From contig JAKLII010000001.1 of the NCBI GenBank assembly GCA_022709695.1, positions 24,881 to 88,880 of the forward strand: a stretch of DNA of 64,000 nt. Reading direction: 5' to 3'. Positions 750-64,000 of the stretch are shown piece after piece. Made by a program: the position numbers and the translations under genes. The DNA comes from Bacteroidota bacterium. GTDB taxonomy: Bacteria; Bacteroidota; Bacteroidia; Bacteroidales; SKPS01. Below the pieces are notes generated by a model. It worked only from the letters and a program-made list of their open reading frames with translations, was not told where the DNA came from and ran no database searches. The number at the start of each line of letters is the position of its first letter. The stretch's first letter is position 1.

Positions 750-762
750 ATAAGGTGGGATT

Positions 763-888
763 AAGGTTCAAGGATCAAGGATCAACGTATAATATTCCAG
801 GTTTCAGGTTTTATTTATAACTCATAACTCATAACTCATAACTCATCATTTATCTGCCAACTGCCGACTGTCGACTACCGACTAAAAT
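763..888. repeat. Concatemer of four different heptanucleotide tandem arrays filling the GH13-MFS intergenic gap
   Basis: Read directly: AAGGTTC AAGGATC AAGGATC AACGTAT (763-790). CAGGTTT x2 (798-811). ATAACTC x4 perfect (817-844). CTGCCAA CTGCCGA CTGTCGA CTACCGA CTAAAAT (854-888). Confidence 0.9.
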
Positions 889-36061: not shown

Positions 36062-37312
36062 TCAGTTTTTCAGCAACCATTTCCAAAGGGGAATTACCTG
36101 TATAACTGATTCTTTCTCCCTGATGATCTCTTCCGAATCGAAGGTAATGATCATGAGGGATTTTACGGAGTGCAGTGCAGCGGCTTTCAGCAGGGCTGAA
36201 ATTTCCCGCTTGCGCGTTTCTGCTGCAGCAAGGCTGTAGCATACCTGCACCAGTAATTCCCCTGGAACCAGAAAATCCACCTCGAAGCCATTTCTCATAT
36301 AAAAGACATTTTGACCATAAAGCTTCCGCAAATGATTGAAAACCAATGTTTCAATCTGAACGGACTCCGGTTCAGCAAGAAATAATGACAGTAATCCGTT
36401 GTCTCTGAAGTAGTATTTTTTCTTTGATTCCCGGCTGCTGATCTTCGCATTGAAATTTGGGATGGAGTTTATCAGAAAAGAATCCTCCAGGTAGTTCATG
36501 TATTCTATCACTGTGGCGGTCCCTATTTGTATTCCTGTAGATGCAATGATATTCCGGATACGGTTAAAGGCCACTTCATCCATGGTGCTTTCTGCAAGCT
36601 TTTTTATGAGCAGGCGCAAGGCAAAAGGATTCCTGATCTGGTACCGGGCAATGATATCCCCCAGGAACACTTTCTGAAAGAGATTGCTCAGGTACTCCTT
36701 TTTATCTGTAAACCTGATCAGTTCCGGAAAACCACCGGTTGAAAAATAGGTACCGAACAAACGGATCACCTCAAACCTTGAAGGAGAGAACTCAAGATGG
36801 TCATCTGGCTGATAACCGTGAAACCACAAAAACTCCCTGAAGGACAGGGTTTCAATCTCCCTGACCAGGAACCTGCCCCCAAGGGTTGAGGCCATCTCTT
36901 TGCTGAGCATGGCAGAATTGCTTCCTGTGATGTAGGTTTGATACCCGGTGTCGGCCATTCGCCTGGCAAATTTCTGCCAGCCCGCAACGACCTGAATTTC
37001 ATCCAGAAAAAGTATCGGCTTATGGCTGAACAGTTCCTGGTAGCTGGACAGCAGGGCATCGAACCCGGTAACATCCAATCCGATGAGCCTTTCATCCTCG
37101 AAATTTACATACAGGATGGATTCCGGGGGCAATCCGTTTTTTACCAGCGACTGCAGCACACCGATGATAAAATAGGTTTTTCCGGCGCGTCGCTGACCGG
37201 TGAAGATGTAGTTTGCCCGGGGTTCGATCGTGTAATCCCTGGGCAGTACTTCAAGGGCAGAAATCCGCTGCTGGTTTTCAAGGATGATTTTTTTTAACAG
37301 GTTGCTTTCCAT
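36062..37312 (-). CDS. AAA+ ATPase of the COG1373 / AAA_14 + DUF4143 type
   Basis: Walker A is GQRRAGKTY and Walker B is ILFLDEIQ, with a C-terminal DUF4143-like region. The track start at 37345 is a GTG, so ATG 37312 (MESNLLKK) is preferred. Confidence 0.8.
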   Translation of the reverse strand: MESNLLKKIILENQQRISALEVLPRDYTIEPRANYIFTGQRRAGKTYFIIGVLQSLVKNGLPPESILYVNFEDERLIGLDVTGFDALLSSYQELFSHKPILFLDEIQVVAGWQKFARRMADTGYQTYITGSNSAMLSKEMASTLGGRFLVREIETLSFREFLWFHGYQPDDHLEFSPSRFEVIRLFGTYFSTGGFPELIRFTDKKEYLSNLFQKVFLGDIIARYQIRNPFALRLLIKKLAESTMDEVAFNRIRNIIASTGIQIGTATVIEYMNYLEDSFLINSIPNFNAKISSRESKKKYYFRDNGLLSLFLAEPESVQIETLVFNHLRKLYGQNVFYMRNGFEVDFLVPGELLVQVCYSLAAAETRKREISALLKAAALHSVKSLMIITFDSEEIIREKESVIQVIPLWKWLLKN

Positions 37313-37332
37313 ATTTTGTTCTATATAGAGAA

Positions 37333-37364
37333 CAAAGATATGCACAAATTATTCGATATACAAA
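37333..37364 (-). promoter_or_regulatory. Candidate Bacteroidota promoter of the AAA ATPase gene (TTTG-N20-TATCTTTG)
   Basis: On the minus strand, TTTG (37364-37361) is followed after 20 nt by TATCTTTG (37340-37333), 21 nt upstream of ATG 37312. The spacing fits the TTTG-N19-21-TAnnTTTG consensus. Confidence 0.5.
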
Positions 37365-37598
37365 ACATTTTTTTTTACGGATAGCGTGATACTGTCATTG
37401 CAGCATCATTTCGTTATTACCTATTCAGCCGTATCCAATTGCGATCATGATAATTCTGGCCAATCAACGAATCGGATGCTGCATGTTGATTGATGACAGA
37501 TTACCCCAGCAAAAAAATCCATCCACCCACATCAATTTCTGAAAAAAATGATTAAATTACCATCAGAAAAATGATCAATATCTAATCAAATCTTTCTT

Positions 37599-37661
37599 GG
37601 ATCAAGGATCAACGTTCAAATATCAAAACAACAACAAACAACAAACAACAAACAACAAAAG
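37599..37661 (+). repeat. Nine phased heptamers forming the leader of the polymerase gene
   Basis: GGATCAA GGATCAA CGTTCAA ATATCAA AACAACA ACAAACA ACAAACA ACAAACA ACAAAAG, then ATG at 37662. This contains (CAACAAA)x4 perfect at 37632-37659. The first 17 nt are identical to 772-788. Confidence 0.9.
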
Positions 37662-40601
37662 ATGCTCTTCGCCCACTCATACTACAGCCTCCGCTACGGC
37701 ACGTTGTCGCCGGAGCAGCTGGTACACCAGGCCCGGGCGCTGGGGCATGAGGTGCTGGTGCTTGCCGACATCAACAACAGCAGTGGGTTTCCGGAGTTTG
37801 TGAAGGAGTGCATGGAGGCGGGCATCACCCCTGTGGCCGGCATCGAATTCCGCCGGAAGGGGCGTTATCTCTGGACCGGCCTCGCCCGCAACGGCGATGG
37901 CATGCAGGAGCTCAACGAATTTCTGAGCCGGCACAATATTGAAGACCTTCCCCTTCCCGACCGGGCGCCCGCCTTTTCTGAGACGTACGTGGTGTACCCG
38001 ATGCAGGGGTTTGGCACGGCAGGGTTGCGAGACAACGAATACATCGGCGTTACACCGCAGGAGCTGCGGAAAAATCCGATGGCGCTGCAGGGCAGGATGT
38101 CAGAGCGCTACCTGCTGCGTGCGCCGGTGTCGTTCGGCACGCCGCAGCAGTACGAGGTGCACCGCAACCTGCGGGCCGTGGACATGAACACCCTCATCTC
38201 CAGGCTCACGCCATCCGACACCGCGTCGCCGGAGGACCTGCTGGTGCCGCCCGATGCCGTACGCAGCCTGTCGGCAGGGGCGCCCTGGCTCCTCAGCAAC
38301 ACCCTGAAGCTGCTGTCGGACTGCCACCTCAGCCTCGACTTCGGCACCATCAAAAACCGGCAGACCTTCACCGGCAACCGCTACGACGACAAGCTGCTGC
38401 TGGAGAAGCTGGCGATGGACGGACTGAAACACCGCTACGGCGCCCGCAACCGCACCGCACGGCAGCGGGTGGTGCATGAGCTGGAGATCATCGACCGCCT
38501 GGGCTTTGCATCGTACTTCCTTATCACCTGGGATATCGTGCGGTATTCGATGTCGCGGGGGTTCTACCACGTGGGCAGGGGCAGCGGCGCCAACAGCGTG
38601 GTGGCCTACTGCCTGATGATCACCAACGTGGATCCCATCGAGCTGGACCTCTACTTCGAACGGTTCCTCAACCCGCGCCGCTCCACCCCGCCCGACTTCG
38701 ACATCGACTATTCGTGGAAGGAGCGCGACGAGGTGCAGGACTACATCTTCAAACGCTACGGGCACCGTCACACCGCCCTGCTGGGTGCCACCTCCACGTT
38801 TAAGGACAAATCGATCTACCGGGAGCTGGGCAAGGTGTACGGGCTGCCCAAAGGGGAGATTGACGCCCTGGTGGAGCGCCCCGCCGACCCGGCAAACCAT
38901 AATGCCATTACGCTGAAGATCATCCGGCTGGCGGAACATATCGCCGACTTCCCCAACATCCGCAGCATCCACGCAGGAGGCATTATTGTATCGGAGGAGC
39001 CCATTACCCGTTACACAGCCCTGGACATGCCACCCAAGGGGTTTCAGACCACACAGTGGGATATGTATGTGGCTGAGGAGCTGGGATTTGAGAAGTTCGA
39101 CATCCTGAGTCAGCGCGGCATCGGCCACATCCGCGATGCCGCCCTCATCGTGAAGCAGAACCGGGGCGAGGCGGTGGATGTGTACGACATCCCCCGGTTC
39201 AAGAGCGACCCTGCCGTGCAGGCACAATTGAAACAGGGAGAGTGCAACGGCTGCTTCTACATCGAGAGCCCGGCCATGCGGGGGCTGCTGAAGAAGTTGC
39301 GCTGCAGCGATTACCTCACCCTGGTGGCCGCCAGCTCCATCATCAGGCCCGGTGTGGCAAAGTCGGGGATGATGAAGGAATACATCCGCAGGTTTCATAA
39401 CCCAAAGGGATTCAGCTACATACACCCCGTGATGGAGGAGCAGCTGAAGGAGACCTATGGCGTGATGGTATATCAGGAGGATGTGCTGAAGATCTGCCAC
39501 CACTTCGCCGGACTTGACCTGGGTGACGCCGACGTGCTGCGCAGGGCCATGAGCGGCAAGGGGCGCGGGAAGAAGGAATTCCGGCTGATTGTGGAGAAGT
39601 TCTTCGACAACTGCCGGCGGTTCGGCTATCCCAAGGCCACTACGCAGGAGGTGTGGCGTCAGATCGAATCGTTTGCCGGGTATTCGTTCTCCAAGGCGCA
39701 TTCGGCCTCCTATGCGGTGGAGAGTTTTCAGAGCCTGTGGCTCAAGGTGCATTACCCGCTGGAGTTCATGGTGGCGGTGATCAACAATTTCGGCGGTTTT
39801 TACCGCACATGGGTCTATTTCAACGAGGCGCGGCGATGGGGAGCCACGCTGGCGCTCCCCTGTGTGAACCTCAGCGGATATCTCACCACCATTTCGGGCA
39901 CCACCATCTATGCCGGCTTCATCCACATCGCAGGGTTGGAGGAGAAACTGGCAAAGCGGCTGGTGCAGGAGCGTGAGGAGCATGGCGATTATCTTTCGCT
40001 GGAGGATTTCGTGCAACGGGTGACGCCAACCCCCGAACAGCTCACCCTGCTGATCCGTGTGGGAGCCTTCCGGTTCACCGGAAAGGGAAAAGCGCCGCTG
40101 TTGTGGGAGAGCCGTATGCTCATCAGCCACCGGCAGCCGGAACCAGCCACTGCCCGGCTGTTTCCGCTTACCACCCGCCCCTTCACGCTGCCCGCGCTGG
40201 TGCACGACCCGCTGGAGGATGCCTGGGATGAGATGGAGCTATTGGGGTTCCCCATCTCTGTGTCGTGGTTCGATATGCTCGAAACCCGCTATCGAGGCGA
40301 TATTGCCGCCCACGGGCTGGCCGGCAGGGTGGGGCAGGAGGTACGGATGCTGGGAAAGCTCGTTACCATCAAATACGTATGGACCGTCCGTAAAGAGATC
40401 ATGCACTTCGGTACGTTTATCGATGTGCACGGCGAATTCTTCGATACGGTGCATTTTCCGCCCTCATTGAAGAACAACCCTTTCCGGGGCGAGGGAATTT
40501 ACCTGCTGCGCGGCAGAGTGGTGGAGGAATTCGGATTTCCGTCGGTGGAAATTTCACACATGGCCAAAATGCCGTTGAAACCCGACCCGCGGGGGAAATG
40601 A
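37662..40601 (+). CDS. DnaE-family DNA polymerase III alpha-like protein, short form (DnaE2/ImuC-like), orphan
   Basis: 979 aa. It has an N-terminal PHP domain (MLFAHSYYSLRYGTLSPEQLV...VLADINNSSGF), a pol III alpha core (GRGSGANSVVAYCL, FERFLNPRRSTPPDFDIDY, AGYSFSKAHSASYA), an HhH region and a C-terminal OB fold. No imuA/imuB-like genes are adjacent. Confidence 0.85.
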   Translation: MLFAHSYYSLRYGTLSPEQLVHQARALGHEVLVLADINNSSGFPEFVKECMEAGITPVAGIEFRRKGRYLWTGLARNGDGMQELNEFLSRHNIEDLPLPDRAPAFSETYVVYPMQGFGTAGLRDNEYIGVTPQELRKNPMALQGRMSERYLLRAPVSFGTPQQYEVHRNLRAVDMNTLISRLTPSDTASPEDLLVPPDAVRSLSAGAPWLLSNTLKLLSDCHLSLDFGTIKNRQTFTGNRYDDKLLLEKLAMDGLKHRYGARNRTARQRVVHELEIIDRLGFASYFLITWDIVRYSMSRGFYHVGRGSGANSVVAYCLMITNVDPIELDLYFERFLNPRRSTPPDFDIDYSWKERDEVQDYIFKRYGHRHTALLGATSTFKDKSIYRELGKVYGLPKGEIDALVERPADPANHNAITLKIIRLAEHIADFPNIRSIHAGGIIVSEEPITRYTALDMPPKGFQTTQWDMYVAEELGFEKFDILSQRGIGHIRDAALIVKQNRGEAVDVYDIPRFKSDPAVQAQLKQGECNGCFYIESPAMRGLLKKLRCSDYLTLVAASSIIRPGVAKSGMMKEYIRRFHNPKGFSYIHPVMEEQLKETYGVMVYQEDVLKICHHFAGLDLGDADVLRRAMSGKGRGKKEFRLIVEKFFDNCRRFGYPKATTQEVWRQIESFAGYSFSKAHSASYAVESFQSLWLKVHYPLEFMVAVINNFGGFYRTWVYFNEARRWGATLALPCVNLSGYLTTISGTTIYAGFIHIAGLEEKLAKRLVQEREEHGDYLSLEDFVQRVTPTPEQLTLLIRVGAFRFTGKGKAPLLWESRMLISHRQPEPATARLFPLTTRPFTLPALVHDPLEDAWDEMELLGFPISVSWFDMLETRYRGDIAAHGLAGRVGQEVRMLGKLVTIKYVWTVRKEIMHFGTFIDVHGEFFDTVHFPPSLKNNPFRGEGIYLLRGRVVEEFGFPSVEISHMAKMPLKPDPRGK

Positions 40602-40605
40602 TCAT

Positions 40606-40662
40606 TTCCGGATTTTATCGCACACGGATCAAACGGATTTTACGAATTAACACGGATTATAA
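40606..40662. repeat. Short tandem ACGGAT-type 9-10 bp word repeats
   Basis: CGGAT/CGAAT words start at 40609, 40625, 40634, 40643 and 40653 (tccggatttta, cacggatcaa, aacggatttt, acgaattaa, cacggattat). They lie between the polymerase stop and the GxxExxY stop. Confidence 0.7.
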
Positions 40663-40672
40663 ACATTATTAT

Positions 40673-41080
40673 TCAAAACCTGGTCATGGGTTTTTGGGAC
40701 TTCCTGTCGTTTGTGAAGATCTTTCTCCTGAATTCCGGATTCTTGCCAAAATTCAACAGAAGCCCAACTTCTTTATCTGTTGCTTTCAAATAGTTGATTA
40801 ATTGCAGTTCATTTTCTTTAATCAGACACTCTGATGCTTTAAGCTCAACTATTATGGTATCCTCGACAATAATGTCGGTAAAGTATTCACCAACAGTAAT
40901 GTTATTGTAATAGACATTGATCTTCTTTTGTTTATCTGCTTTGAGGCCTTGCTCTTTCAACTCCACCAGTATGGCATTTTCATAGACTTTTTCCAGGAAA
41001 CCAAAATCAAGCGTGTTGTAAACTTTAAAAAAGCAATTCAGTATTCTATTTGTCAATTCCTTGTGCAAGAGATCATTCAT
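40673..41080 (-). CDS. GxxExxY-family protein (PD-(D/E)XK nuclease-like fold)
   Basis: 135 aa. The GFLEKVYENAL signature (G-x-x-E-x-x-Y) and the ...IIVELKA...QLINYLKAT...GLLLNFG blocks are typical of the family. Confidence 0.85.
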   Translation of the reverse strand: MNDLLHKELTNRILNCFFKVYNTLDFGFLEKVYENAILVELKEQGLKADKQKKINVYYNNITVGEYFTDIIVEDTIIVELKASECLIKENELQLINYLKATDKEVGLLLNFGKNPEFRRKIFTNDRKSQKPMTRF

Positions 41081-41136
41081 GGTCGCGGCATGTCTTTAAT
41101 CCATTTTTAAGCAAAATGCACTGGTTTACAATAAAC

Positions 41137-41415
41137 AATCAGTGATCATCAGTTGCAACCGTAAAATCAGTGTTCAATGATTGTTTTCTAATCCTATAAA
41201 TGATTGAAAACAGAAAAACGGAGATTATCAATCAATTTTTTCAGCAGATTTCCCTGAGGGGTATTAAGTATTACTTCAGATCCCCGTAATAAGTGATGCT
41301 AATGGAAGACTGATGCCACCGATACAACGGATAAACACACATTTTATAGAACGGATTCATTATTGTGTTTTTAGTAAATCAGCGATCATCCGTTACATCG
41401 GTGTTGACCGTGTTC
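41137..41415. repeat. Dispersed word repeats: two ~39-bp AATCAGYGATCATCMGTT... copies plus ACGGAT words
   Basis: 41137-41175 and 41377-41415 match at 28 of 39 positions by eye. ACGGAT occurs at 41327 and 41351, and the inverted ATCCGT at 41388. Confidence 0.6.
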
Positions 41416-41532
41416 TATTCCTTATGAAGTTCGCATAGATGCCATAACAGGATTAAGTGAAGTTCCTGCGGTGAACATATAGAAGTCTCCTTTGGCAGCA
41501 TGCAGATGTCGGAAGGCAGCTCAGTTCCGGCA

Positions 41533-59392: not shown

Positions 59393-59432
59393 AACACAGA
59401 TGAAACTGATGGGACTGGTTTCCGATGATTAT

Positions 59433-59633
59433 TTCTCGCAGAAAACGCGGAAACTACGCAGATATCCGCAGAAGTTATTTATTTTTTCAGCGTCTTTCCG
59501 CGAAATTTCAGCGAATTTCAGCGAGAGAAAAAATTTCACGCAGAAACCTCGCGGAAATCCGCAGAAACATTTTTTCAGCGCCACTTGTGCTGAGCTTGTC
59601 GAAGCATCAGTGAAATTTCCTGCGAGAAACTTC
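59433..59633 (+). repeat. Modular intergenic repeat, locus R1 (A-C-A-B-C', partly degenerate)
   Basis: Contains TTCTCGCAGAAAACGCGGAAACTACGCAGATATCCGCAGAAG. It also has ...GCGAAATTTCAGCGAATTTCAGCGAGAGAAAAAAT and CTCGCGGAAATCCGCAGAAAC. CCACTTGTGCTGAGCTTGTCGAAGCA lies at 59581-59606. Confidence 0.9.
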
Positions 59634-62357: not shown

Positions 62358-62362
62358 AGACC

Positions 62363-62507
62363 TTTTTTCTCGCAGAAATCCGCAGACAGCACGCGGAAAT
62401 CCGCAGAACCTTATTTCAGCGTCTATCTGCGAAATTTCAGCGAATTTCAGCGAGAGAAAAAATATTCTCGCAGAAATCCGCAGTAAGTTCGCGGAAATCC
62501 GCAGAGA
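62363..62507 (+). repeat. Modular intergenic repeat, locus R2 (A-A-C-A-A, no B module)
   Basis: TTTTTTCTCGCAGAAATCCGCAGACAGCACGCGGAAATCCGCAGAACCTTATTTCAGCGTCTATCTGCGAAATTTCAGCGAATTTCAGCGAGAGAAAAAATATTCTCGCAGAAATCCGCAGTAAGTTCGCGGAAATCCGCAGAG. Confidence 0.92.
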
Positions 62508-62513
62508 TCATTC

Positions 62514-62891
62514 TCATAAACCATTAACAATTCGCTGAATCGAGTGTAGTATATTGGCTGTGTTGAAGTTAATCAGTAATCCAAGCTTTTTATCAGAAAG
62601 CTTCAGGTACGTTAAAAGTTGCTTGCTGTGCACATCTGTGAGCTGTTCAACTGATTTGATTTCAACGATCACTTTGTTTTCTACAAGCAGGTCTATCCGA
62701 TATCCAACATCAAGTTTAACATCTTCATAAACAAGCGGCAGAGGCACCTGCGAATTAACAATCAAGCCATTTTTACTGATAAGGTGCTTTAAAACAGATT
62801 CATAACTCGATTCAAGTAATCCTGGCCCAAGTTCCTTATAGGTAGTATAAACTGCGCCACGGATGATGTACGAAATTTCATTTTCAGTCAT
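62514..62891 (-). CDS. GxxExxY-family protein (PD-(D/E)XK nuclease-like fold)
   Basis: 125 aa with the GLLESSYESVL signature and ...VIVEIKSV...QLLTYLKLSDKKLGLLINFN. It is a paralogue of 40673-41080. Confidence 0.85.
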   Translation of the reverse strand: MTENEISYIIRGAVYTTYKELGPGLLESSYESVLKHLISKNGLIVNSQVPLPLVYEDVKLDVGYRIDLLVENKVIVEIKSVEQLTDVHSKQLLTYLKLSDKKLGLLINFNTANILHSIQRIVNGL

Positions 62892-62965
62892 AAGTTTTTA
62901 TTGTATATATGATTGAGCTTTCAAAAAAGGAGACAGGTAAGGTACTTTTTAAAAATAATCATGAT

Positions 62966-63020
62966 TCTTTCTGCGAATTTCCGCGTAATTTCACCGAGTT
63001 TCTGCGAGAAAAAAAATCAC
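62966..63020 (+). repeat. Modular intergenic repeat, locus R3 (degenerate C module only), abutting the MBL start codon
   Basis: TCTTTCTGCGAATTTCCGCGTAATTTCACCGAGTTTCTGCGAGAAAAAAAATCACG aligns to the C module TCTGCGAAATTTCAGCGAATTTCAGCGAGAGAAAAAAT. It ends 1 nt before ATG 63022. Confidence 0.7.
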
Positions 63021-63021
63021 G

Positions 63022-63726
63022 ATGAAAACCTTCACTACAAAATCGGGTTACCAAATCATTCAGCTGTTAAGTGGCCGTGCCAATGTATGGCTCGTGGAAG
63101 CCGGTTCAATCCGCATTCTGGTAGATACCGGGATCACCCTCAACCGCAAAAAACTCCTCAACAAGCTCAATCCCGAATCGCTTCGCTCCCGGGACTCCGC
63201 TTCGCTCCGCCTCAACTTTCTCCTGCTGACCCACACCCATTTTGATCATTGTCAGAATGCAGCCTGGCTAAAGAACAGGTTAGGGTGTAAGATCATTGTC
63301 GGGGAGAGTGCGAAAGAGTTTGTCAGGATGGGGTACACACCGATCCCTGGTGGAGTAACCCGGTGGGCCAGGTTTGTTGTGAGGTTAGGGAGAAAGTTCA
63401 GGCCAGGATTTACAGGTTATGCTCCATTTCAGGCAGATATGATTGTGAAAGAGAAGTTTACATTTGCGCTGGAAGGGGTAAACCTGGAAATTATCCCTAC
63501 CCCAGGACACTCCTCCGATTCCATTTCCCTGCTGGTTGACGGTGAGGTAGCAATTGTTGGAGATACATTGTATGGGATGGTATCCGGGAAAGCCATGCCT
63601 CCGTTTGCAGATGATGTGCCGTTGTTGAAGCAGCAGTGGAAAGTATTGCTTGATACGGGTTGCCAATGGTTTTTGCCGGGACACGGAAAACCCATTTCTG
63701 CCGCTTTGCTGCAGAAATTCATTTAA
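63022..63726 (+). CDS. MBL-fold metallo-hydrolase
   Basis: 234 aa with the HxHxDH motif (LLLTHTHFDHCQN) and a later PTPGHSSDS block. Confidence 0.85.
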   Translation: MKTFTTKSGYQIIQLLSGRANVWLVEAGSIRILVDTGITLNRKKLLNKLNPESLRSRDSASLRLNFLLLTHTHFDHCQNAAWLKNRLGCKIIVGESAKEFVRMGYTPIPGGVTRWARFVVRLGRKFRPGFTGYAPFQADMIVKEKFTFALEGVNLEIIPTPGHSSDSISLLVDGEVAIVGDTLYGMVSGKAMPPFADDVPLLKQQWKVLLDTGCQWFLPGHGKPISAALLQKFI

Positions 63727-63740
63727 TACCCTGATTTTAT

Positions 63741-64000
63741 TTCTCGCGGAAATCCGCAGAACCTTATTTCAGCGCCACTTGTGCTGAGTTTGTCGAAGCA
63801 TCTGCGAAATTTCAGCGAATTTCAGCGAGAGAAAAAATATTCTCGCAGAAATCCGCAGAAAGCACGCGGAAATCCGCAGAATTTTATTTTAGCGCCACTT
63901 GTGCTGAGCTTGTCGAAGCATCAGCGAAATTTCAGCGAATTTCAGCGAGAGAAAAAATATTCTCGCGGAAATCCGCAGAACCTTATTTCAGCGCCACTTG
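63741..64000 (+). repeat. Modular intergenic repeat, locus R4: tandem array (100-bp unit, 120-bp unit, third unit cut by window end)
   Basis: Unit 1 is 63741-63840 (A-B-C). Unit 2 is 63841-63960 (A-A-B-C). Unit 3 starts at 63961 and is identical to unit 1 as far as the window shows. Confidence 0.92.

Follow-up and report, generated by a model that had tools for sequence, protein, structure and literature searches.

A heptamer repeat before the start codon of a dnaE2-like polymerase gene and its counterparts in Bacteroidales

It is already known that simple sequence repeats with a unit of seven nucleotides are abundant in prokaryotes, that heptamers may be found before start codons (PMC4679880) and that a heptamer array in a 5'UTR can control expression, as in hmw1A (PMC12721329). 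According to the work of Mrazek (2007), in the form in which it is summarised in PMC4679880, heptanucleotides are the most abundant class of long simple sequence repeats (LSSRs) in many prokaryotes. In Haemophilus influenzae the genes hmw1A and hmw2A have the repeat (ATCTTTC)n in their 5'UTR (PMC12721329, PMC8262952). The array of hmw1A forms a hairpin which is cut by RNase III, and the level of expression is set in this way; in nature this gene has at least 11 repeats (PMC12721329). The heptamer TAACTGA is found as direct repeats which precede start codons in Beggiatoaceae, in Cyanobacteria and in five Bacteroidetes (MacGregor 2015, PMC4679880). The STRR heptamers of Cyanobacteria are a comparable case. 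For the TAACTGA repeats a role in translation is suspected (PMC4679880). Initiation of translation in Bacteroidetes is independent of the Shine-Dalgarno sequence and is tuned by mRNA structure, by an A at position -3 and by the avoidance of AUG (PMC6847099).

Here we describe a heptamer tract of 63 nt (37599–37661) which is placed immediately before the start codon of a DNA polymerase gene. It is found in a stretch of DNA of 64 kb, which we call the window. The coordinates of its main features are given in Table 1.

Table 1. Position of the features discussed in the text, numbered from the first nucleotide of the window
Feature	Position	Strand	Description
Second heptamer-phased locus	751–884	+	GATTAAG GTTCAAG GATCAAG GATCAAC ..., ATAACTC x4.3, CTGCCGA x4.3
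Putative operator site 1, TGATTAAATTACCATCA	37549–37565	+	dyad of type TGATTA-N5-TAATCA, degenerate right half
Putative operator site 2, TGATCAATATCTAATCA	37572–37588	+	dyad TGATCA-N5-TAATCA
Imperfect heptamer array (NNNTCAA)x4	37599–37626	+	GGATCAA GGATCAA CGTTCAA ATATCAA
A/C-only run, then AG	37627–37661	+	perfect (CAACAAA)x4 at 37632–37659; start-proximal part of the predicted 5'UTR, A at -3
DnaE-type Pol III alpha homologue, 979 aa	37662–40601	+	short PHP, pol3_alpha, finger and HHH_6 domains

The tract had been read in the earlier note as nine consecutive heptamers. The letters are as described there, but the count is in part a matter of parsing: the 63 nt are made of two adjacent arrays, both anchored on CAA, and the second one is offset by 1 nt with respect to the first. 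The four perfect CAACAAA units which the note reported are present, and TRF detects them with a score of 60 (37630–37659, period 7, 4.3 copies, 100% match). Their end does not coincide exactly with the start codon, as had been claimed: the perfect repeat stops 2 nt short of ATG 37662, which is preceded by AG. With a gap of only 2 nt it is a start-proximal repeat of the type described by MacGregor (2015). The self-identity of the tract is 0.75 at lag 7, while at other lags it is 0.31–0.52. The 14-mer CAACAAACAACAAA, which corresponds to two units, has 3 matches, as compared with 0.08 expected. Among periods 4–12, arrays with 14 out of 14 lag matches were found in the 64 kb at period 7 only and at two loci only; a scan extended to periods 2–15 gave arrays of this quality at no other period. 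The tract is a simple sequence repeat of the LSSR kind, with head-to-tail copies of 7 nt beyond chance. We also considered the open reading frame 37597–37803 (TTG start, 68 aa) as a leader peptide; we discarded it, since its frame is not that of the polymerase and relatives do not conserve the repeat units. A scan of region 37200–37800 against Rfam gave nothing meaningful, the best E-values being 0.84 and 0.88, both for eukaryotic families.

The second locus with period 7, whose lag-7 identity is 0.69, also lacks structure as RNA (z = +1.3). Two convergent genes have their 3' ends on either side of it, so that it is not a leader. The 17-mer GGATCAAGGATCAACGT is found without any change at 772–788 and at 37599–37615, and it is the only repeat sequence which both loci share. 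A scan of viral contigs for a mobile-element origin of this 17-mer gave 2 matches, which we judge to be at about the level of chance and uninformative. In the 64 kb examined there is no single reused heptamer comparable to TAACTGA: the units found are CAACAAA, GGATCAA, ATAACTC and CTGCCGA. Towards its end the window also has a dispersed family of repeats of about 120 nt, with motifs of 10–11 nt (CGCGGAAATCCGCAGAA ... TCTGCGAAATTTCAGCGAATTTCAGCGAGAGAAAAAATATT) and inverted symmetry, at positions 59430–59630, 62360–62510, 62960–63010 and 63740–64000. Copies of this family flank a second GxxExxY PD-(D/E)XK gene (62514–62891) and precede a gene with a metallo-beta-lactamase fold (63022–63726). At the very end of the window TRF finds two tandem copies of 120 nt with a match of 94%.

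The gene which follows the tract codes for a DnaE-type polymerase. Its start appears to be well placed, since ATG 37662 is the first possible start in frame and the homologues align from residues 1–5. The PHP match is confined to residues 4–95. The protein does not reach the NCBIfam model NF004225 ('error-prone DNA polymerase'), with 458 bits where 939 are required; the DnaE equivalogs also have cut-offs which it does not attain, and the superfamily model TIGR00594 is the only NCBIfam model which it passes. It has the features of DnaE2, namely a DnaE-type core which lacks the C-terminal tau-binding domain and has a short PHP and thumb; its size and its reduced PHP agree with those reported for DnaE2 of Bacteroidetes (PMC3919608). 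The context of its orthologues makes it plausible that it is an error-prone polymerase of the DnaE2 type (PMC6511836), which lends support to the suggestion, made previously from the sequence, of a putative mutator polymerase.

In most orthologues a repressor gene of the HTH_3/Peptidase_S24 type is divergent from a gene for a Y-family polymerase (IMS/IMS_C), which is followed by dnaE2. This layout is that of the putative PolY2-DnaE2 mutasome (DnaE2B-PolY-RecA) of Bacteroidetes (PMC6511836, PMC12926913). The Y-family gene is directly upstream of dnaE2 in 114 of 151 orthologues; the window has the operator of this cassette without that gene. A tblastn search of the 64 kb window found neither a Y-family polymerase nor an S24 repressor. 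The upstream neighbour of the polymerase is a divergent AAA_14/DUF4143 gene and the downstream neighbour is a GxxExxY PD-(D/E)XK gene (40673–41080). The latter is flanked on both sides (40602–40672 and 41081–41532) by scattered ACGGAT / ATCCGT motifs, with one GGATCAA at 40626–40632. In the clade of the window the junction between the Y-family polymerase and dnaE2 has been repeatedly split by unrelated inserted genes (L164 1128–1490; L168 1789–2282; L169 774–2306; window 36062–37345). The inserts comprise a gene for a four-helix-bundle protein (23S_rRNA_IVP), a ParE/YoeB toxin together with its antitoxin, and an S41 peptidase. At all of these split junctions dnaE2 has its own copy of the operator.

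The putative operator is a pair of dyads upstream of the tract, and a direct repeat (AAAAATGATTAA / AAAAATGATCAA) with a spacing of 23 nt is found in it. A block TGATYA-N20-36-TRATCA is present in 98 of 165 loci and is invariant in the alignment of the clade of the window. The typical pair is formed by TGATTATATTGTAATCA, a separation of 6–7 nt and then TGATTAATTTTTAATCA. In intact operons it is found in the intergenic region between the repressor and the Y-family polymerase; when the polymerase stands alone it is found 60–300 nt upstream of it. Over the loci L002–L172 the paired dyads are typically 1300–1900 nt upstream of the polymerase start, beside HTH_3/Peptidase_S24 genes in MAGs of Bacteroidales. 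Site 1 overlaps a box similar to TAnnTT(T)G, probably a -7 box of the Bacteroidetes type (TAnnTT..), which in relatives is preceded by a TTG at a distance of about 11 nt. The promoter would be placed there on this similarity. A scan for sigma-70 promoters and intrinsic terminators did not find any. This is to be expected, given the nature of Bacteroidetes promoters. Transcription would start near the operator, as judged from the position of the latter and from weak motifs which resemble -33 and -7 boxes.

The tract is located between the operator block and ATG 37662. Since the conserved operator/promoter block (37549–37588) is upstream of it, the tract would be part of the 5'UTR and not a promoter spacer; the number of copies would then alter the length of the leader and not the spacing of the promoter. 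A change in promoter spacing, which the earlier note had also envisaged, is thus unlikely.

The dyads bring to mind the SOS boxes of LexA. The non-canonical boxes already known are CTAA-N5-TTAG and GGA-N5-TCC, and the survey which describes them reports that both groups of regulators are absent from Bacteroidales (PMC8565304). The operator pair, together with the neighbouring HTH_3/S24 genes, may represent a third SOS-like regulator with its own motif. The presence of the TGATTA-N5-TAATCA pair beside HTH/S24 genes suggests an SOS-like regulon in Bacteroidales, of which there is none in published surveys.

The RNA of the tract is practically devoid of structure. The segment 37599–37680 has a minimum free energy of -1.9 kcal/mol and has no pairing between 37611 and the end of the start codon; when the larger region 37540–37700 is folded, pairing is restricted to the operator. 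The leader is poor in G, has an A at -3 and no AUG. Its fold does not differ from that of shuffled sequences (z = 0.5), so that the A/C composition alone accounts for the absence of structure, without any need for repetition as such. The description of a G-poor, unstructured A/C leader, fit for initiation independent of Shine-Dalgarno pairing (PMC6847099), is borne out by these values. A hairpin or attenuator in the window was considered and discarded: the tract is unpaired, and a complementary TTTGTTG arm is absent across the whole window.

The locus acquires its interest when it is compared with related species. We have studied 80 orthologous loci from genomes and 80 from metagenomes, to which closer relatives were added by protein search and exact-protein look-ups. 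All matches in the genome and metagenome scans had at most 65% identity; the relatives with 74–81% identity and the identical assemblies came from the protein search and the look-ups. Recurrence was counted in 151 non-redundant orthologous loci, considering the last 100 nt before the start and a TRF score of at least 40 (or at least 30 as a lenient threshold). In this interval 51% of the loci had a repeat at the first threshold and 62% at the second. The commonest periods there are 7, 8 and 9, in this order, plus their multiples; period 7 also leads among all repeats of the loci (146 of 516 TRF rows). The median gap between repeat and ATG is 7 nt in the 151 loci. Repeats cover 25% of the bases at -100..-1, 10% at -200..-101, about 0.5–1% in the flanks and almost none inside the gene. 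Minor peaks are found before the Y-polymerase gene, in its leader, and just past the stop codon of the polymerase.

The units are unrelated between lineages. Even in relatives with about 80% protein identity we find CAACAAA (window), three copies of TTGATCA (L163) and four of TTTTAGT (L164), all of them abutting the ATG. Some loci have very long arrays at the same junction (L052, L014, L044, L129, L074 and L116): GACTTTC is repeated 36 times, GAACCCTT 20 times and TTTGACT 15 times, and further arrays in these six loci are a 9-mer with 12 copies, a 13-mer with 10 and a 9-mer with 9.6. Such repeats distort gene calls. Protein P0070 (L170 2501–2782) is 94 aa too long, because a heptamer array free of stops was read as coding, while P0010 (L166 2501) was called too short: its true start (ATGCTGACGCAATGCCAT...) is upstream and is preceded by heptamers of the TTAACCA type.

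The distance between genes is also informative. Among the 114 orthologues with the Y-family polymerase directly upstream there are 18 with a gap of 20 nt or less and no repeat; when the gap is 60–250 nt, repeats are found in 74–82% of the cases. In the clade of the window the distance from the end of the operator to the ATG is 11, 21, about 25–32, 42, 73 (window) and 77 nt; the longer leaders owe their additional nucleotides to short repeats. Starting from tight coupling, the spacer seems to have been lengthened time and again by expansion of repeats, also in the clade of the window. The relatives with leaders of 11–21 nt and the 18 operons with short repeat-free gaps demonstrate that a long repeat leader is dispensable.

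Repeat leaders are of two classes. In 28 of the 69 repeat-bearing loci the 150 nt upstream form a long hairpin, with a repeat arm and a complementary arm as in hmw1A, and the folds are much better than those of shuffled sequences (z < -2.5). In this class a G-rich array pairs with a C-rich array which is proximal to the start; in L134 the energy is -53.6 kcal/mol, with z = -8.5. Such a pair of arms is absent from the window, whose tract belongs to the single-stranded class and not to the hairpin class.

In order to interpret these counts we need to consider the repeats found elsewhere in the same loci. Among gene starts with free upstream DNA, repeats are present in 57 of 107 cases for dnaE2 and in 81 of 396 for other genes (OR 4.4, p 1e-10). 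In intergenic regions of matched length, 60–250 nt, the values are 53 of 70 (76%) for dnaE2 and 77 of 211 (36%) for the others (OR 5.4, p 1.5e-8); this background of about 36% corresponds to the lenient repeat threshold. In regions of this length repeats make up 32.5% of the bases upstream of dnaE2 and about 12% elsewhere. These controls indicate that short repeats are a general habit of the non-coding DNA of these genomes, with a further enrichment of 2–5-fold at the dnaE2 start.

The repeats next to the start also have a bias in base composition, which suggests constraint on the sense strand. On the sense strand C exceeds G in 50 of them and G exceeds C in 17 (p 7e-5), whereas the arrays at -300..-61 have the opposite bias (G>C 55 vs 17). 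The proximal bias is found in both classes, 20:7 with a long hairpin and 24:9 without it. ATG is present in 2 of 70 proximal units, while shuffling of the units predicts 9.2 (P 0.0025). Stop trinucleotides are more frequent in the proximal units than expected, 49 vs 33.7 (P 0.0005). Local folding (-45..+15) is weaker in the leaders with repeats, -4.3 vs -6.9 kcal/mol. About a quarter of the start-proximal arrays are rich in G or in T, as is the case for TTTTAGT in L164.

The number of copies is extremely variable in some related species. Three loci (L170, L171 and L172) have dnaE2 genes which are 95–97% identical, while the spacers between the Y-family polymerase and dnaE2 have 466, 317 and 404 nt, a difference of up to 149 nt. 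These spacers are almost entirely made of heptamers (CCAAGTC, CCAAAAT, ATCCGAC, ATTAGAC), with a lag-7 identity of 0.53–0.54 vs about 0.2–0.3 at other lags. L005 and L008, which are 98% identical, differ by an indel of two heptamers in the operon leader, and several indels of unit size distinguish L083 from L096. In some loci the arrays at the start junction reach 10–36 copies. The lineage of the window itself appears uniform: L001 (JGI 3300010429) and L162 (ENA ERZ795055) do not differ from the window over 8.9 and 5.3 kb, the four-unit tract included, so that no polymorphism of the tract is seen among these three assemblies, which are consensus sequences and perhaps not independent. The idea of a slippage-prone tract with a variable number of copies agrees with relatives such as L170, L171 and L172; the lineage of the window, with three identical assemblies and only about four perfect units, does not lend it support.

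From these data we propose with moderate confidence that the tract is a 5' leader without structure, built by slippage and evolving fast, which belongs to a dnaE2 gene of the SOS type, and that it is one member of a recurrent class. It would be the start-proximal part of the leader of a stand-alone dnaE2-like gene, with a conserved operator/promoter block of the SOS type on one side and the start codon on the other. Its 7-nt units would have multiplied by replication slippage, and repeats of 7–9 nt with unrelated units would have arisen independently, directly before dnaE2, in roughly one half of the related Bacteroidales. In the mRNA it may act as a spacer poor in G, free of AUG and of structure and with an A at -3, suited to initiation which does not depend on a Shine-Dalgarno sequence. 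The number of copies would drift rapidly over evolutionary time and thus change the length of the leader; the effect on the synthesis of DnaE2 would probably be graded at most, and not an on/off switch.

Much of what we have described would also be found if these genomes simply had a strong tendency to tandem duplication of 7–9 nt in unconstrained DNA, which the 5' junction of dnaE2 merely tolerates, without any function. Part of the repeat signal is indeed a mutational habit of the whole clade, as demonstrated by the repeats in about 36% of the other intergenic regions of 60–250 nt. The dominance of period 7 in the loci, the lack of conservation of the unit sequences, the short repeat-free leaders of close relatives and the second heptamer locus, where convergent genes make a leader function impossible, agree with a neutral origin; so does the general abundance of heptanucleotides among long repeats in many prokaryotes, as far as the work of Mrazek (2007) is reported in PMC4679880. 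However, the 2–5-fold enrichment at dnaE2 survives length matching and the arrays abut the start codon. The excess of C over G, the depletion of ATG and the excess of stop trinucleotides are not predicted by a DNA process which is blind to the strand, and it is mainly for this reason that we rank a role in the mRNA above pure neutrality. A purely neutral origin deserves to be taken seriously, though we rather doubt it. A quite different possibility is that the repeats have been selected as an evolvable 'rheostat' of the mutasome: the length of the repeat, or in many lineages a hairpin built from it, would set the amount of DnaE2 after induction, and lineages would vary in their mutagenic capacity in a heritable and reversible way. 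We consider it unlikely. In a bolder version the arrays may be the footprint in cis of slippage-prone synthesis by the mutasome itself at a heavily transcribed locus.

A contingency locus, as the earlier note had imagined it and for which hmw1A is the model, would require more: frequent and reversible gain and loss of CAACAAA in the population would switch or grade the expression of DnaE2 and give a heritable, reversible capacity for mutagenesis. The repeat is within a predicted transcribed leader, nearly identical strains differ hugely in their junction arrays, which may be very long, and the hairpins of many orthologues, such as that of L134, are similar to the hmw 5'UTR (PMC12721329). Nevertheless the window has about four perfect units and no complementary arm, far from the number found in hmw1A in nature (PMC12721329). 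The three assemblies are identical at the locus. The tract is neither between promoter elements nor in a coding frame, so that no on/off mechanism is apparent, and the differences between strains correspond to evolutionary lability rather than to switching within a population. For the window we find such a contingency locus decidedly improbable. The heptamers of the mRNA could also bind a single-strand-binding regulator (a cold-shock-domain protein, S1 or similar), one per unit, by analogy with the proposal made for TAACTGA in Beggiatoaceae. The period of 7 and the location just before the start codon are as in PMC4679880, and the 17-mer shared by the two heptamer loci may point to a unit which this genome prefers. 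Yet the units differ completely within and between loci and between relatives, without any shared recognition sequence, and the second locus precedes no gene. Given units without a common sequence, very little probability can be assigned to a binding platform.

A leader with four heptamer units is not remarkable by itself. The novelty comes from the comparison: in about half of the lineages of Bacteroidales studied, of which there are more than 150, the same error-prone-type polymerase gene has repeats of 7–9 nt up against its start codon, with units unrelated to one another, with a sense-strand bias and with variation at the level of strains. In the literature searched we have found no description of an association of repeats with the dnaE2 start across Bacteroidales, of its sense-strand biases or of the TGATTA-N5-TAATCA pair. 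Should the repeats tune translation, a mutagenic polymerase would be under a simple and evolvable control, and these species would offer a natural test bed for the influence of leader length and structure on initiation in bacteria which ignore the Shine-Dalgarno sequence.

We may finally compare this locus with the systems already described. With LSSRs (Mrazek 2007 via PMC4679880; PMC4692102) it shares tandem units of 5–11 nt, with 7 nt as the commonest size, a mostly non-coding location and an origin ascribed to polymerase slippage; in that case it is a propensity of the whole genome, and neither enrichment at the start of a particular gene nor sense-strand bias is described in that work as summarised. 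The TAACTGA repeats are also sets of 2–6 heptamers a few nt before start codons, in a context poor in Shine-Dalgarno sequences and with other heptamers in the same intergenic regions. They differ from the present case by their unit and by its use throughout the genome, since no single genome-wide unit is evident in the 64 kb examined; here a single orthologous gene has acquired unrelated units in many lineages.

The LexA SOS boxes (PMC8565304) are likewise dyads with a 5-nt spacer, and in relatives of the window the present dyad adjoins an HTH_3/S24 gene; its motif is TGATTA-N5-TAATCA, present twice, which is neither CTAA-N5-TTAG nor GGA-N5-TCC. As in the PolY2-DnaE2 mutasome (PMC6511836, PMC12926913), the orthologues have an HTH_3/Peptidase_S24 gene divergent from the pair formed by the Y-family polymerase and dnaE2, whereas the 64 kb of the window have neither the Y-family polymerase nor the repressor. 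With hmw1A and hmw2A there is in common a heptanucleotide repeat in a predicted 5'UTR, just upstream of the gene, with a number of copies which varies among relatives, and in many orthologues of the present locus also a long hairpin between a repeat arm and a complementary arm. The window itself departs from them by its approximately four units, the absence of complementary arm and hairpin and the lack of visible polymorphism within the lineage; the gene which follows the repeat codes for a surface adhesin in H. influenzae and for a DNA polymerase here.
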